From a virus (taxonomy: Duplodnaviria > Heunggongvirae > Uroviricota > Caudoviricetes), in IMG/VR virus record IMGVR_UViG_3300047446_000131, positions 1-9,216 of that record: DNA of 9,216 nucleotides. One strand, 5' to 3'. Below the pieces are notes generated by a model that was not told the origin of the DNA, did not search any database, and was given only the letters and a program-made list of their open reading frames with translations. The position numbers and the translations under genes were made by a program. Below, in pieces: positions 4,288-9,216 of the stretch (the first letter of the stretch is position 1; every line of letters starts with the position of its first letter).

Positions 4288-4618
4288 TTTTTATCTCCTC
4301 GAGTCGAATCGTATCCTGAGTTTCGTTATTCACTCCGACAAGCGTCAGCCAAGCGCTTCCTTCTCCTGTCCACGTCACTTCCACCCGCCGGAGAGTCAGG
4401 CGGGGTTCCCAGCGTTCAAGGGCGGTTACCGTTTCACGAACAATTCTCACCCGCGTGAAATCATCCTGTGGGTTATCAAGCAGACTGAAAAGTCTGCTGC
4501 CGTATTCCCTGAGCAGGACCCGGCTGCCGACCGGTGTTGACAAAATATCGGTGACGGACTGGCGCAGATGTTCGTTACCGTGCAGATATCTGCCGGTGGC
4601 TGAATCAATACCAATCAT
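4262..4618 (-). CDS. Baseplate assembly protein W (P2 gpW-like, gp25 family)
   Basis: Complete ORF, 118 aa, ATG start. The core ILSTPVGSRVLLREYGSRLFSLLDNPQ...ERWEPRLTL resembles P2 gpW as I recall it (ILRTPVGSRVMRRDYGSLLASMIDQPQ...LKWEPRVTL). Gene order V-W-J-I is as in P2. Confidence 0.85.
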   Translation of the reverse strand: MIGIDSATGRYLHGNEHLRQSVTDILSTPVGSRVLLREYGSRLFSLLDNPQDDFTRVRIVRETVTALERWEPRLTLRRVEVTWTGEGSAWLTLVGVNNETQDTIRLEEIKIGNVSGNH

Positions 4619-4650
4619 GTTGTTTATTCCGGAAAAGAACTGAAAGGAGA

Positions 4651-5274
4651 TTACATTTGCTGACCAGGCTGTCCGGTGCTGCCACCACTGTCGCCCCGGT
4701 GATTGTGACCGTTATAGACAATTCTGATTTGACTCATCGTTCCGTGATAATCAGAAACCTCACCACCGACCATCAGATCCGCCTTAACCACCGCCTCAGC
4801 ATTCATGGTTGCTTTACCCTGTACGGTCAGGGTATCTGTGATTTCTACCGGACCGTCCAGGGTTCCCCTGCCGGTAATTTTATAGCTGCCGCCTTCAGCC
4901 AGCGTGATGGACAGGGCATTAGCCTGACGGTCGTAACGGATTTCCGTTCCGGTATCAAACAAAATAACATGTTCGTATTCACTGCCCTCAGGGACAGGAA
5001 TGGCGTCAATATTGGCCCCCGGATACACCCGACCGTTACGCAGATCGCCCGCCTCCGATATCACTGTAACGGCATCTCCGGGAGCCGGGTAATTACTGAC
5101 CTGCATGTAGCGCCCGGACTGTACCTGAATCCAGGGCAACGGAGGCGAAAGCACATCCCCGATATCCACCCGAACCATCACCGGGCTACCCGGGATCACC
5201 TCGTCCACCACGCCGCGACGGACCATGTCCGCCACCCTGCGGCGTAACTCAGCCACTTCATCTGCCAGACTCAT
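4651..5274 (-). CDS. Baseplate central spike protein (P2 gpV-like)
   Basis: The ORF track gives 4651..5568, but the ATG at 5274 (MSLADEVAELRRR...) is preceded by GGAGGG about 8 nt upstream and gives 207 aa, close to P2 gpV size. Using the track start would overlap the entire upstream gene. The C-terminus NGHNHRGDSGGSTGQP resembles the P2 gpV C-terminus as I recall it (HTHKHPGDSGGTTGSP). Confidence 0.85.
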   Translation of the reverse strand: MSLADEVAELRRRVADMVRRGVVDEVIPGSPVMVRVDIGDVLSPPLPWIQVQSGRYMQVSNYPAPGDAVTVISEAGDLRNGRVYPGANIDAIPVPEGSEYEHVILFDTGTEIRYDRQANALSITLAEGGSYKITGRGTLDGPVEITDTLTVQGKATMNAEAVVKADLMVGGEVSDYHGTMSQIRIVYNGHNHRGDSGGSTGQPGQQM

Positions 5275-5821
5275 CACCGGTGCCCTCCGATTTCCAGATA
5301 AGACGATAATCCTGCTCATGTCTCTTGCCGGTTTCCGGTACTTTACCCAGCCAGACTTCCTGTAACGGCGCACCTGCCGGAACCGCAAACGGATCTTCGC
5401 CGACCGGAATGTCCTGTTCAAAAGAGACACGGAAAACGATGTAGTCGTCCAGTAGCCGGTCGAAGGTATCCACCTCAGCATCGATAAAAACCGCCGGATC
5501 AACGTTATCCAGCCCGAACGTGGCTCCCTCAATCCAGTCAGATAAATCCATCGCCAGACAACGGGCAAAAATCTGCGGTTTTGGCACGTTTTCCGTCTTC
5601 CCGGCCCGGTCTGTCACCACAAACAGATCACATTTCAGCGTGACCCGCGTTTGCCCGTCAGCAAAATGAGCCTTGTCCCAGCCCGGTACATCTACAAACA
5701 CAGCAGGCGTCACCAGTTGCGTCACTTTTTCCGGGTACTCATCGGCATCTTCCACCCAGGGAATTTGTTTCAGACTGTCAATCACCGCCTGATGCCAGGC
5801 GCCCATCATCAATGGCTCCAT
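5258..5821 (-). CDS. Hypothetical phage structural protein at the head-tail junction; possibly a tail completion (gpR-like) protein
   Basis: Complete ORF, about 187 aa from ATG at 5821 (the track starts at GTG 5824). The ATG overlaps the upstream stop by 1 nt (TGATG coupling). Acidic protein lying directly upstream of the spike gene, where P2 carries tail completion genes R and S. My recollection of a faint resemblance to P2 gpR (a VVTD-type segment) is weak. The function is inferred from position only. Confidence 0.6.
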   Translation of the reverse strand: MEPLMMGAWHQAVIDSLKQIPWVEDADEYPEKVTQLVTPAVFVDVPGWDKAHFADGQTRVTLKCDLFVVTDRAGKTENVPKPQIFARCLAMDLSDWIEGATFGLDNVDPAVFIDAEVDTFDRLLDDYIVFRVSFEQDIPVGEDPFAVPAGAPLQEVWLGKVPETGKRHEQDYRLIWKSEGTGDESGR

Positions 5822-6543
5822 CACTCCAGCCCCTTAAATACCCGGAATTTCAGTTCATGCTCAAAATTTTTCAGGATCAGTGCTTCCGCATCCGGAAAAA
5901 CAAAATCCTCTATACGGTTCAGCATGGCTTCATAAATATCAATTTCCGCTTCACGCACCCTCCGTCGTCCGGATGCCTGTCGGATCAGTATCGTTTTCCT
6001 TTTTGATATACGTCCGTTACGATTTTCCGCTTCGAACTGGTTGATAAAGGCATCATCCGTTGACCAGGTGGTGACAGGCAGGGATTCCCCGGCAGGTTTA
6101 AAACGGATCTCCCGTGCCTTCCTGCGGCGGGAAGCTGGTGCAAAACGCCCCCGCTCATCGCGCAACTGATGGCGTTCGCCGCGTCGCCCCCCACTGATGC
6201 GTCCGCGCAGATCGCGTACTTTGATGGCATTCAGACCGAACCATACCTTCGCCTCATCAAACTCATCACCGTTACGACGAATGATAAAATTATGCAGAAC
6301 ACGCTTTTTGATCATTTTCTGACTGCGTGGGGCAACCTGTTTTTTAAACTCTGCCATAGCCTTCATCCGCAGTGCAGACGCGGCTCTTTTCAGCGCCACG
6401 CCCCAGGCTTTACGGATCTGACTTTTTGACCCACCCAGTTTAGCGATAATTTTCAGCACCTCATCTTCATCAATATCGACGACGAGGTTTCGTGCCAGCC
6501 GTCGCTGCCGGGCACTGCTTCGTTCATGCTCTCTGACTGCCAT
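5821..6543 (-). CDS. Hypothetical highly basic phage protein at the head-tail junction; possible virion morphogenesis or tail completion protein
   Basis: The ORF track gives 5821..6603 with a TTG start. The first in-frame ATG is at 6543 (MAVREHERSSARQRR...), about 240 aa, which overlaps the FII-like gene end by 20 nt. Which start is used is uncertain; no strong Shine-Dalgarno at either. Very Arg/Lys-rich (RRGERHQLRDERGRFAPASRRRKAREIRFK). I recognise no confident family. Confidence 0.55.
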   Translation of the reverse strand: MAVREHERSSARQRRLARNLVVDIDEDEVLKIIAKLGGSKSQIRKAWGVALKRAASALRMKAMAEFKKQVAPRSQKMIKKRVLHNFIIRRNGDEFDEAKVWFGLNAIKVRDLRGRISGGRRGERHQLRDERGRFAPASRRRKAREIRFKPAGESLPVTTWSTDDAFINQFEAENRNGRISKRKTILIRQASGRRRVREAEIDIYEAMLNRIEDFVFPDAEALILKNFEHELKFRVFKGLE

Positions 6544-6928
6544 AACGTTTACTCGGTCGTTCCGGTGCAGCAGGTGTATTTCTCCCCGGCTCTCCACGCG
6601 CAAGGGTGATGGTAATCACCCCCTGACCCACAGTGCCTGACTCACCCCAGCCGGGATCGACTACCTGATAGGGTTCGCCGTGGATCATGACCCTGTCATA
6701 TTTTTTCAGACCGGCGGCCCATGCGCTCCGGGTAAATAACACGGGCGCAGTATCACGAATTTCGCCGCTGCCAGTGTTCATCCCGGTGTTTTCTGCCGGG
6801 GCATCAAAAACGGCACGGATTCTTCTTTCCGTGCCGCCCGGATATATGCTGATTTCCGTCCCCATCGTATCCAGGATGATGTCATCCGCATCGCTCATGG
6901 CCTGATCGAACAGATTATCTAACATCAT
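6524..6928 (-). CDS. Head-tail joining protein (lambda gpFII-like)
   Basis: ORF 6524..6931 in the track (GTG then ATG ATG); I take the ATG at 6928, which overlaps the upstream stop (TGATG). N-terminal LDNLFDQAMSDADDIILDTMGTEISI...AVFDAP...PVLFTRS parallels lambda FII as I recall it (FDNLFDAAIARADETIRGYMGTSATI...GVFDDP...PSLFVRT). About 18 residues longer at the C-terminus than lambda FII. Confidence 0.8.
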   Translation of the reverse strand: MMLDNLFDQAMSDADDIILDTMGTEISIYPGGTERRIRAVFDAPAENTGMNTGSGEIRDTAPVLFTRSAWAAGLKKYDRVMIHGEPYQVVDPGWGESGTVGQGVITITLARGEPGRNTPAAPERPSKRYGSQRA

Positions 6929-7293
6929 CACTCCCAGATTTTTTCTGCCAGACCGTCCGCCAGCAACGCAGGAACTGCGGCTTCATTAACCAGCACAACA
7001 CTGGAGGCCCGGGCAAACATCAACATTTTTCCCGTCACAGCATCACAGGCTGGCATATGCGCCGTTTTCAGCATACGCACCCGGGCGAGTCCCCGCTCAG
7101 AATGCATTCCGTCGCCGGATGCATCGTTGCCCACATCTTCCTTCCCTGTCTCCTCCCCATCGAATCCGGCGGCCTCCTCTTCCCATTCCGCCAGGCGCTG
7201 CTCAAGATCGGCTTTTGAACCTGAAATATCTGCTTCACGCCCCAGAATCACTGCCAGTTCCTGCAAACGTTCAGTCATCTGCTCTTTTGTCAT
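6928..7293 (-). CDS. DNA packaging / head assembly protein (lambda gpFI-like)
   Basis: The track ORF 6928..7425 starts at TTG. The ATG at 7293 (MTKEQMTERLQELAVILGREADISGSKADLEQRLAEWEEE...) has GGAGAG 5 nt upstream and gives 121 aa. The N-terminus resembles lambda FI as I recall it (MTKDELIARLRSLGEQLNRDVSLTGTKEELALRVAELKEE). Located between the E-like and FII-like genes as in lambda. Confidence 0.75.
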   Translation of the reverse strand: MTKEQMTERLQELAVILGREADISGSKADLEQRLAEWEEEAAGFDGEETGKEDVGNDASGDGMHSERGLARVRMLKTAHMPACDAVTGKMLMFARASSVVLVNEAAVPALLADGLAEKIWE

Positions 7294-7311
7294 CACATCT
7301 CTCCCGTGCGC

Positions 7312-7341
7312 TAAAGAAAAAGGCGGGAATATCCCGCCCCG
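7312..7341 (-). terminator. Rho-independent terminator or attenuator immediately downstream of the major capsid gene
   Basis: On the minus-strand RNA: a GC-rich stem GGCGGGA/UCCCGCC (plus 7323-7329 and 7333-7339, 3-nt loop) followed by UUUUUCUUU (plus 7312-7322). It starts 3 nt after the capsid stop codon at 7344. Confidence 0.65.
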
Positions 7342-7343
7342 TC

Positions 7344-8372
7344 TTATTTCACCTGAACCACCACAAACGCATCCGGATCCGGCAGCACCATCAACGGCGC
7401 AGACTGCGTCATGGTATATTCGCAACCAGGATCCCCCACTTCCTCCCAGTGTTTCGGATAACGAATCGCAGAGGTGATCCCTTCACTCAGTGCCTGATTA
7501 TCCTGAATGGCACCATAACAACGGACGCCTTCCGCCTGAGTGTTCCCCAGAATCAGTGTACCTTCCGGCAGATAACGCTGTTCATCCCCGTTTTCGTCAA
7601 CATACGTTGTCTTCGCCACCACAATTGCCAGATCGCCGTAATGGCCTTTAAAGGAAACCACGGAGCCCAGATCTTTCAGTGCCGTTTCCAGCTCAGATTT
7701 GGAGCCACGGCGGGTATCCAGTTTTTCACGGAACAGTTTAAAACCGTTCAGCATACGCCAGACCGTGCCGTCCATAATCGCGATATTGATGGTGCCGGAA
7801 GCGAAATCGCAGTACGCATCCAGATCATGCGTCGGATCGAAGGTGTCAGCATTCTGCTGTGACCATTCGCGTCCGCCAGCCTGCGTAATGTTATTGGCGA
7901 CAGAACGCCCAAAATCCACTTCCACCGTCTCAAACTGCTCGCCGCTCATGGTGTATTTACCCTGCAGAACGGCACTGACCGCCTGCATTTCTTCCACCTG
8001 CACAATCGCCTGCTCTTCCTGTTTCAGGTTGTCCGTCAGAATACGCAGACGGCGGTAAGCCGGGTCATTAAGGCGGGCCGGATCTTCTCCCGGAAGACGT
8101 TCCACTGCCTGCTGATAATCAAAGCGGTGTTTTGGTTTTACATAACCGGGACGTAACACACGGGTTTCACCACCACGGCTGCGCAGCACTTTGCCTGACA
8201 CCACCGGAGACACATACGCTGCAACCGGTGTTTTGCCGGTAATTTTATCCAGCATGACTTCCTGAGTATGGAAAGTGATCGTGCGACGAAAGAACAGCTC
8301 CAGAAACAGCGCACGAAATTTCACTTTCTGCTCGGTGTACCCGAGTAACTGACGCGTGGTAAATAACCCCAT
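7344..8372 (-). CDS. Major capsid protein (lambda gpE-like)
   Basis: Complete ORF, 342 aa, ATG start with GAAGGA upstream. Extensive similarity along the whole length to lambda gpE as I recall it, e.g. YVSPVVSGKVLRSRGG...PGYVKPKH, QVEEMQAVSAVLQGKYTMSGEQF, KLDTRRGSKSELETALKDLG, ILGNTQAEGVRCYGAIQD, MTQSAPLMVLPDPDAFVVVQ. Confidence 0.95.
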   Translation of the reverse strand: MGLFTTRQLLGYTEQKVKFRALFLELFFRRTITFHTQEVMLDKITGKTPVAAYVSPVVSGKVLRSRGGETRVLRPGYVKPKHRFDYQQAVERLPGEDPARLNDPAYRRLRILTDNLKQEEQAIVQVEEMQAVSAVLQGKYTMSGEQFETVEVDFGRSVANNITQAGGREWSQQNADTFDPTHDLDAYCDFASGTINIAIMDGTVWRMLNGFKLFREKLDTRRGSKSELETALKDLGSVVSFKGHYGDLAIVVAKTTYVDENGDEQRYLPEGTLILGNTQAEGVRCYGAIQDNQALSEGITSAIRYPKHWEEVGDPGCEYTMTQSAPLMVLPDPDAFVVVQVK

Positions 8373-8815: not shown

Positions 8816-9216
8816 TTACGGCATACTCATCAGCAGGTCTTCTTCCCCGCGTCCGGCAGTTCCGCCGCCGGAAACCGCGCTGGCGGCATGCTGTGCCATA
8901 AAGCGATCAAAAAGCGTTTCCTGTGACGGTTGTGATGCCGCCGGTGCGGCTGCCAGCAATGTTTTCGCCTGCTCAACCGTCATTCCCGGTTGTTCTGCCA
9001 GTGCCTGTGCCAGTTGCTCGCGCCCTTTCGCCTCCGACAGTGCCATAATCTGCTCACCGGCACTTGCTGAACCAGCAACCGGTGCCGCTGCCAGTAACGT
9101 TTTTGCCTGGCCAACGGTCATTCCCGGCTGTTCAGCCAGCGCCTGCGCCAGTTGTTCACGCCCTTTTGCTTCCGGCAACGCCATAATCTGATCGCCTGTG
9201 CCTGCAGCACTGGCAG
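8816..9216 (-). CDS. Prohead scaffold/protease (lambda C/Nu3-like), C-terminal part; gene runs off the right edge
   Basis: The reading frame is open from the window edge to the TAA at 8816; the track shows only an internal-Met segment 8816..9184. The C-terminal motif QIMALSEAKGREQLAQALAEQPGMTVEQAKTLLAAAP matches the lambda C/Nu3 C-terminus as I recall it (RIMGILNCEEAHGREEQARVLAETPGMTVKTARRILAAAP). It lies directly upstream of the D-like gene, as in lambda. Confidence 0.8.
   Translation of the reverse strand, partial: ASAAGTGDQIMALPEAKGREQLAQALAEQPGMTVGQAKTLLAAAPVAGSASAGEQIMALSEAKGREQLAQALAEQPGMTVEQAKTLLAAAPAASQPSQETLFDRFMAQHAASAVSGGGTAGRGEEDLLMSMP
8909..9216 (-). repeat. In-frame tandem repeat, 138-bp (46-aa) unit, inside the scaffold gene: two full copies plus a partial third at the window edge
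   Basis: Units at about 8909-9046 and 9047-9184, with a third starting at 9185. Manual alignment of 106 nt of the two full copies shows 18 mismatches, mostly at codon third positions, while the encoded 35-aa cores differ at only 2 residues. Confidence 0.75.

Follow-up and report, generated by a model that had tools for sequence, protein, structure and literature searches.

Putative tail-finishing genes of the gpZ and terminator types between the FII-like and gpV-like genes of an E. coli prophage that joins a lambda-type head to a P2-type tail

The window analyzed here, a stretch of 9,216 nucleotides, comes from an E. coli prophage that combines a lambda-type head with a P2-type contractile tail; the full gene order of this element is Nu1-A-W-B-C(S49)-D-E-FI-FII, followed by the two genes considered here and then by V-W-J-I-H-G-sheath-tube-E-T-U-X-D. 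Both genes lie on the minus strand (Table 1), flanked by an FII-like gene and a spike gene resembling P2 gpV, neighbors that a preliminary description of this DNA had correctly recognized. The upstream gene matches Pfam Phage_attach at 1.5e-12, phrog_82 ('head closure Hc1') at 3.9e-28 and, slightly below the 25-bit cut-off, the NCBIfam model tail_join_FII (1.8e-5, 24.6 bits), while the downstream gene matches TIGR01644 (phage_P2_V) at 1.1e-19 and phrog_9992, a baseplate assembly protein, in agreement with its PGAP annotation. The 3′ end of the FII-like gene overlaps the start of the first of the two genes by 20 nt, and the gpV-like gene overlaps the 3′ end of the second by 17 nt; these abutting and overlapping genes, together with the absence of promoters in a scan of positions 4500-7500, are consistent with a single late operon.

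Table 1. Features at the predicted head-tail junction of the window
Feature	Position	Strand	Basis
FII-type head-tail joining (head closure, Hc1) gene	6524..6931	-	Phage_attach PF05354, phrog_82, tail_join_FII
Gene of the basic protein, putative tail completion protein, 240 aa	5821..6543	-	phrog_27; likely start ATG 6543
Expanded Arg/Lys-rich loop of the putative tail completion protein, about residues 115-148, GGRRGERHQLRDERGRFAPASRRRKAREIRF	6100..6201	-	alignments
Gene of the acidic protein, putative terminator, 187 aa (PGAP: 183 aa)	5258..5821	-	predicted terminator fold, PA0615, phrog_1072
P2 gpV-type baseplate spike gene	4651..5274	-	TIGR01644, phrog_9992, PGAP annotation

The listed open reading frames at this locus, 5821..6603(-) with a TTG start (260 aa) and 5258..5824(-) with a GTG start (188 aa), lie where they had been described and encode, as had also been stated, one basic and one acidic protein (pI 11.05 and 4.34), both larger than P2 gpR (155 aa) and gpS (150 aa). 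The true start of the basic protein is likely the ATG of Table 1, which is favored by the RefSeq/PGAP start and by homolog N-termini of the form MA(R/V/I)..., and the TTG start at 6603 is probably an over-extension. For the acidic protein, the ATG at 5821 is the likely start, given that it overlaps the TGA of the preceding gene as TGATG, has an AAGGGG/GGAG motif upstream and agrees with homologs that begin with M-x-P-[LV]; PGAP places this start at 5809. In a comparison with an E. coli prophage copy of 90-94% identity, the differences by codon position number 16/8/45 in the basic and 2/3/29 in the acidic gene, with 37 synonymous versus 19 non-synonymous codons in the former and 28 versus 5 in the latter. 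Both genes are thus real and under purifying selection, and the locus is present in 78 of the 5426 complete E. coli genomes. Two plus-strand open reading frames, 5651-5935 and 6169-6429, were rejected as genes, as they have no PHROG match and the pattern of substitution is in phase with the minus-strand codons. RefSeq calls both proteins 'hypothetical', and PHROGs lists phrog_1072, the family of the acidic protein, as of unknown function.

Neither protein is matched by a Pfam (E<=10) or an NCBIfam (E<=1) model, and the earlier view that they fall outside the P2 gpR (PF06891) and gpS (PF05069) families stands, with hhalign giving E 0.65 for the acidic family against gpR and E 0.39 for the basic family against gpS. 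The preliminary description had not been able to place the two confidently in the lambda Z/U families either; both can now be placed. The basic protein (57 K+R versus 33 D+E) scores 2.3e-28 against phrog_27 ('tail completion or Neck1'), with the match spanning profile positions 3-194 of 199; lambda gpZ matches the same model at 3.2e-69. As the protein itself has no Pfam match, being too divergent from gpZ for a direct score, its link to Pfam Minor_tail_Z (PF06763; gathering threshold 23.9 bits) is transitive or runs via the PHROG: the threshold is passed by its syntenic orthologs in Burkholderia phage HM795 (30 bits) and Wolbachia phage WO (gp7, 43 bits), and by four of eight shorter relatives (177-207 aa) that a search with the profile of the basic protein had retrieved, with four more slightly under it; in the same Pfam scan, two relatives of the long form and one of the short form had no match. 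A direct hhalign comparison with gpZ is collinear over 156 columns (E 6e-4), at a probability of only 28%. AF2 modeling of the basic protein is only moderate in quality, as a single one of the five models attains a pLDDT of 75 and the other four stay near 55; it suggests long N- and C-terminal helices flanking a beta-rich middle, an arrangement that is likewise predicted for gpZ and would fit the published description of tail completion proteins (TCPs), including the extra beta domain of gpZ (PMC11661146). No terminator fold is seen in this predicted structure, and phmmer and profile searches against PDB sequences returned only spurious helical-repeat and ribosomal matches. The gene lies directly after the FII/Hc1 gene and before the putative terminator gene, as gpZ does in lambda, and five other phages are alike in this respect. 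On these sequence comparisons, we identify the basic protein as a divergent TCP (TCP/Neck1) of the lambda gpZ type. It differs from gpZ in its length (240 versus 192 aa), in a basic loop that is longer by ~20-30 residues and carries its own RHxLRDxxxGRF and FxPxG motifs, in an additional 8-residue insertion and in serving a sheathed rather than a siphovirus tail.

The acidic protein matches phrog_1072 at 5.8e-51, and its AF2 model has a pLDDT of 80. With this model, Foldseek against the PDB recovered the pyocin R2 collar (6u5j/6u5f) at 4e-8 and the Mu terminator (9khy) at 6e-7, along with the cyanophage A-1(L) terminator, lambda gpU, T5 p142, T4 gp15 and the diffocin collar, all at a probability of about 1.0; the 31 PDB matches at E<=1e-3 are essentially all phage or tailocin terminators or collars, headed by 6u5j, 6u5f, 9khy, 8kef, 3fz2, 2gjv and 8bcp. 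The closest solved relative is the R2 collar PA0615 (171 aa, ~20% identity, TM 0.6-0.67), which is also reached by sequence, with the family profile scoring it at E 8.3e-4 (single sequence 0.087) on the basis of a shared C-terminal motif, P-x-x-G-x-x-H-x-x-D-Y. Membership in the P2 gpR family was rejected on the hhalign and Pfam results given above, and membership in the lambda gpU sequence family (PF06141, phrog_37) for want of a Pfam or PHROG match; hhalign of the acidic family with gpU gives E 0.004 at a probability of 8% over 45 N-terminal columns only. P2 gpR itself has no match among PDB sequences, and hence 2gjv is not confirmed by sequence as gpR-like. The model thus points to a tail terminator or collar that is fold-level kin of lambda gpU and belongs to the fold class of gpU, P2 gpR, the Mu terminator and T4 gp15; by analogy with these, it would assemble into a hexameric cap. 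It is larger than gpU (131 aa) as well as gpR, and its gene holds the place of gpU in the lambda FII-Z-U order. The gene lies directly upstream of a gpV homolog, as does the 'Collar' gene of WO and, presumably, that of the pyocin, which we take from the standard PAO1 gene numbering. Whereas the pyocin is headless, in the phage this protein has the additional task of docking a head by way of FII. The fold comparison that had been proposed for both proteins accordingly bore out a terminator only for the acidic one, through gpU, the Mu terminator and PA0615; the suggested neck or tail-terminator role is upheld in outline, as a function at the head-tail junction, but fails for the basic protein as a terminator.

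Megablast of the region against a phage collection returned no match, and tblastn found relatives in Hafnia phage yong2, Citrobacter phage Chris1, Vibrio phage Valp1, vB_EcoM-569R10, HM795 and WO. Five of these (yong2, Valp1, vB_EcoM-569R10, HM795 and WO) show the order FII-gpZ-Collar-gpV, and in Chris1 the two proteins are adjacent by their tblastn matches alone. Valp1 is a myovirus whose contractile tail has been seen by electron microscopy (PMC11054321), and for WO the order is in print as gpFII-gpZ-Collar-gpV, with a published HHpred match of its collar to the R-pyocin collar at 100% and E 1.7e-30 (PMC9203015 S1 Text). The block is an old one with a wide distribution, present in phages of Gamma-, Beta- and Alphaproteobacteria. 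These findings bear on the first interpretation of the pair, as novel adaptors that arose for the specific task of fitting a P2 tail to a lambda connector. That interpretation could draw on the lack of Pfam and NCBIfam matches, the unannotated state of phrog_1072 and the absence of sequence similarity to P2 gpR or gpS, but both proteins belong to established classes, one through phrog_27 and the other through its predicted terminator fold, and the arrangement recurs in sequenced phages and is already in the literature. We consider it extremely unlikely, as it is largely refuted by the phrog_27 membership, the Foldseek matches and the WO publication. The finding is an ordinary one: the usual tail-finishing pair, in a gene order already described in other phages.

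The charges of the two proteins fit this picture. The pI pairs are 12.0/4.05 for lambda Z/U, 10.5/4.5 for P2 S/R and 11.05/4.34 for the proteins of the window, so that a basic TCP adjoining an acidic terminator is the normal pairing. The Arg/Lys-rich region had been thought unusual for a tail terminator; since the protein that carries it is by its family a TCP and not a terminator, its charge is not anomalous, and gpZ has a run of such residues of its own (RRRRRKK). The order also follows the canonical Hc1, TCP, terminator (TrP) succession (PMC11784142), with the TCP ahead of the TrP as in lambda, whereas P2 has the reverse (R, then S).

It is highly probable, in our judgment, that the two genes encode the tail-finishing TCP and terminator of a temperate myovirus whose head is of the lambda type and whose contractile tail is of the P2 type. 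A distinctly improbable alternative is a two-terminator system like T4 gp3/gp15, in which one protein would end the tube and the other the sheath, and the basic protein would itself be a terminator that forms a ring. Older P2 genetics, in which mutation of gpR lengthens the tube and mutation of gpS the sheath (as summarized in PMC11784142), could be read in this way, and P2 gpS bears the same PHROG label, 'tail completion or Neck1' (phrog_26); however, the P2 virion has a single gpR ring that touches the adaptor, tube and sheath, and no gpS ring (bioRxiv 10.64898/2026.09.14.750843). The basic protein, moreover, falls in the phrog_27 of gpZ and not in the gpS family, and its model is devoid of a terminator fold. 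The capping protein in the structure of pyocin R2 is the collar PA0615, and the gene cluster of this pyocin is not known to include a gene of the gpZ type.

Under the preferred reading, as a TCP with a terminator, the acidic protein would, by analogy with its solved homologs, form a hexamer that caps the last tube and sheath rings once the tail has grown to the length that its tape measure dictates, and would then present a docking surface for the FII hexamer on the filled head. For the basic protein, the guide is 80alpha gp51 (HK97 gp10 family, PDB 9mu2), the only solved TCP, a monomer in the neck lumen that bridges the DNA end, through a positive face, and the tape-measure N-termini (PMC11661146). 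By analogy with it, lambda gpZ and SPP1 gp16.1, we infer that one or a few copies may occupy the uppermost part of the tail lumen, where they would bind the N-termini of the tape measure on one side and, via a positive face, the packaged DNA end on the other, a position that would render the joined particle infectious.

The location of TCPs does vary, and the basic protein could instead be a tail-tip or other non-neck accessory, comparable to T5 p143, or an assembly factor lost from the virion, which we judge very improbable. The T5 'TCP' p143 occurs as a monomer at the tail tip, where it is seated on the hub of the baseplate, and the authors of that study make the case that the TCPs may be a heterogeneous group (PMC11784142), while gpZ is unseen in lambda reconstructions (PMC11661146). 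Yet in the same study p143 is a structural outlier, and a single fold is predicted for gpZ, gp16.1, HK97 gp10, P2 gpS and the TCP of Mu (PMC11784142), the only solved representative of which, gp51, lies in the neck lumen (PMC11661146); the basic protein, for its part, is collinear with gpZ.

The main value of these assignments is in annotation, as the names gpZ-type tail completion protein and tail terminator/collar can now be given to the two products and extended to those of E. coli, Salmonella, Hafnia, Citrobacter, Vibrio, Burkholderia and Wolbachia phages. They also indicate that a PA0615-type terminator can couple a lambda-type FII neck to a P2-type sheathed tail and that the R-pyocin cap is related to the terminator lineage of the window rather than to P2 gpR; neither changes the understanding of head-tail joining.

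What remains as the distinctive feature is the lineage-specific growth of the basic loop. In the alignments the loop occupies the position of the SRRRRRKKGQRSS basic stretch of lambda gpZ, but the orthologs in HM795 and WO lack it, as do most relatives, with most of those of ~175-200 aa matching the profile in two stretches that skip it. Within the loop-bearing clade, H125, R128, G132, F148, P150 and G152 are invariant, and the AF2 pLDDT across the loop is ~57-60. The loop is a likely candidate for the DNA-facing positive face of the putative TCP. A more specific proposal, which we offer as speculative and rather doubtful, is that this conserved segment of ~30-40 residues, by which the gpZ basic patch is expanded in the enterobacterial and Vibrio clade, is a dedicated grip on the cos DNA end or a lumen plug in the contractile tail. 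If so, the loop-bearing TCP subfamily would be a tractable system in which to locate a gpZ-type protein and define its working.

Two genes stand between the FII-like gene and the P2 gpV-like spike gene of this E. coli prophage, and their products belong to known kinds of protein, namely a gpZ-type tail completion protein (TCP, or Neck1) and a tail terminator/collar protein. The preliminary description located the pair correctly, its coordinates matching two ORFs at 5821-6603 and 5258-5824, whose best-supported starts are tabulated here. The products have pI values of 11.05 (basic) and 4.34 (acidic). Relative to a prophage copy that is 90-94% identical, third codon positions take most of the substitutions (45 of 69 in the basic gene and 29 of 34 in the acidic one), and synonymous codon changes outnumber non-synonymous ones in both genes; antisense ORFs within the two-gene region gave no family matches.

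Best-supported starts of the two genes between the FII-like and spike genes
Protein	Best-supported start	Length	Strand	Support
Basic protein	ATG 6543	240 aa	(-)	PGAP start; homologues begin MA(R/V/I) there
Acidic protein	ATG 5821	187 aa	(-)	ATG overlaps upstream stop as TGATG; homologues begin MxP(L/V)

All genes of the window are on the minus strand, and a prophage adjoining the trp operon of E. coli C012 is 99.5% identical to it, the locus being present in 78 of 5426 complete E. coli genomes. The full prophage displays a lambda-type head module (small and large terminase, gpW, portal, S49 protease, decoration D, capsid E, FI and FII), with FII followed by two "hypothetical proteins" and then by a complete P2-type contractile tail module in the order V, W, J, I, fibre, fibre assembly, sheath, tube, E/E', tape measure, U, X, D. 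Pfam and NCBIfam identify the flanking genes in the window as Phage_cap_E, HDPD, Packaging_FI, Phage_attach (FII), phage_P2_V, GPW_gp25, Baseplate_J and Tail_P2_I.

The basic protein has no match in Pfam or NCBIfam, and PHROGs assigns it to phrog_27 ("tail completion or Neck1"; 2.3e-28), to which lambda gpZ is assigned when scanned the same way (3.2e-69), P2 gpS going to phrog_26 with the same functional label. Only 185 relatives emerged when 1.84 billion representative proteins were searched exhaustively with its profile. Same-position orthologues in Burkholderia phage HM795 and Wolbachia phage WOcauB1 (gp7) pass the Pfam Minor_tail_Z threshold; in a Pfam scan of the relatives, four of eight shorter ones (177-207 aa) pass it and four more approach it, while a match is lacking for two relatives of the long form and one of the short. 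The family aligns with gpZ over 156 collinear columns (hhalign, E 6e-4, probability only 28%). The AF2 model, the sole one of five to reach pLDDT 75, runs from helices at 26-36, 40-69 and 75-81 through a beta-rich middle to a C-terminal helix of 34 residues, an architecture compatible with the published TCP description, including the extra beta domain of gpZ at its apex (PMC11661146).

The Arg/Lys-rich central region, held in the preliminary description to be unusual for a tail terminator, lies in a MAFFT alignment at the position of gpZ's SRRRRRKKGQRSS, and in the window's clade this loop is ~20-30 residues longer than in gpZ. The expanded loop is missing from HM795, WO and most relatives; it is modeled with low pLDDT, yet contains invariant residues. 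This lineage-specific enlargement of the gpZ basic loop is what remains notable, together with the fact that both proteins are still "hypothetical" in public annotation. Separately, a 1582-aa protein from the representative-protein search (P0251) has 13 separate matches to profile positions 118-158, which cover the basic loop (E 1.4e-13), and is probably a low-complexity Arg-rich repeat protein, not a true homologue.

The family of the acidic protein, phrog_1072, is without annotated function in PHROGs. The pyocin R2 "Collar PA0615" (6u5f) is matched at E 0.087 by the single sequence and at 8.3e-4 by the family profile, and the C-terminal motif PxxGxxHxxDY is common to the family and PA0615. 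With an AF2 model from a 32-sequence alignment (pLDDT 80), Foldseek against the PDB recovers almost only tail terminators at probability 1.0, the best being the pyocin R2 collar (4e-8) and the Mu terminator (6e-7), with cyanophage A-1(L) gp7, lambda gpU, T5 p142, R4C, DT57C, GTA, the diffocin collar and T4 gp15 among the others. In a PHROG scan of references, P2 gpR and lambda gpU go to phrog_65 and phrog_37, both "tail terminator"; the acidic family cannot be connected to gpR by sequence, and its sequence signal to gpU is faint. In a preprint on the cryo-EM structure of P2, PA0615 is taken to correspond to gpR, which forms one ring in contact with adaptor, tube and sheath (bioRxiv 10.64898/2026.09.14.750843). 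By sequence profile, no solved protein is closer to this terminator family (window 5258-5821 (-); WOcauB1, L004, 5971-6492; L006, 6977-7510) than PA0615, and gpR is undetectable; accordingly, the R-pyocin cap appears to share the lineage of the FII-gpZ-Collar-gpV phages (WO, HM795, yong2, Valp1) and not to be part of the P2 gpR family, a kinship that nuances the usual statement that an R-pyocin is a P2 tail.

The pair is ordinary, because a basic TCP normally has an acidic terminator for a neighbour (pI 12.0/4.05 for lambda Z/U and 10.5/4.5 for P2 S/R), and the canonical gene order is head closure (Hc1), TCP, terminator (PMC11784142). The order FII-like, gpZ-like, collar-like, gpV recurs in Wolbachia WO, for which it has been published as gpFII-gpZ-Collar-gpV (PMC9203015), in Burkholderia HM795 and E. 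coli vB_EcoM-569R10, and in the Hafnia and Vibrio phages yong2 and Valp1, the latter shown by electron microscopy to be a contractile-tailed myovirus (PMC11054321); Citrobacter phage Chris1 has both proteins side by side (tblastn). The preliminary description's view of a pair that could not be placed confidently thus gives way to known families in the same order in sequenced phages, the kind of evidence that it named as refuting it. Around this conserved core the module order is fluid, because Valp1 inserts genes for a PAAR protein and a small hypothetical protein between gpV and gpW, WOcauB1 inserts one for a small putative membrane protein, and yong2 places its sheath-to-D block there; the E. 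coli prophage has no extra genes at this point.

By analogy with homologues, the acidic protein would form a hexameric cap that stops growth of tube and sheath and offers the FII ring a surface to dock on. The basic protein would enter last and lodge in the lumen, attached to the tape-measure N-termini, with its positive surface turned to the DNA end, like 80alpha gp51; its expanded loop is the best candidate for a DNA-facing element. Lambda Z- particles assemble, with infectivity ~500-fold lower (PMC11661146). Two caveats attach to the lumenal placement: T5 differs in TCP location (PMC11784142), and maps of lambda have never shown gpZ (PMC11661146).

Among the head genes, phrog_2353 ("major head protein"), whose profile has 481 positions, matches residues 1-314 of capsid gpE (7344-8372 (-)) and then runs on in the -1 frame, crossing the 3' end of E and the intergenic stretch, into FI (6928-7425 (-); profile positions 317-481); therefore, in some catalogued phages E and FI are fused, in fact or in the annotation. 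The window's own E has a canonical end (342 aa) and is covered by Pfam Phage_cap_E over the full length, and no obvious slippery heptamer is present near 7425-7440; the match may stem from an annotation error, an indel or a genuine frameshift product. Four nucleotides after the major capsid stop and before FI, a strong GC-rich hairpin and, after it, a T-run (GGGGCGGGATATTCCCGCC TTTTTCTTT; 7320-7340 (-)) look like an intrinsic terminator or attenuator, which could increase capsid mRNA over that of the genes downstream. The S49 protease/scaffold gene, which extends beyond the window, has in its scaffold-like C-terminal end a 138-nt tandem duplication (8941-9190; 1.8 copies, 83% identical) that repeats a ~46-aa segment (…EAKGREQLAQALAEQPGMTV(G/E)QAKTLLAAAP…).
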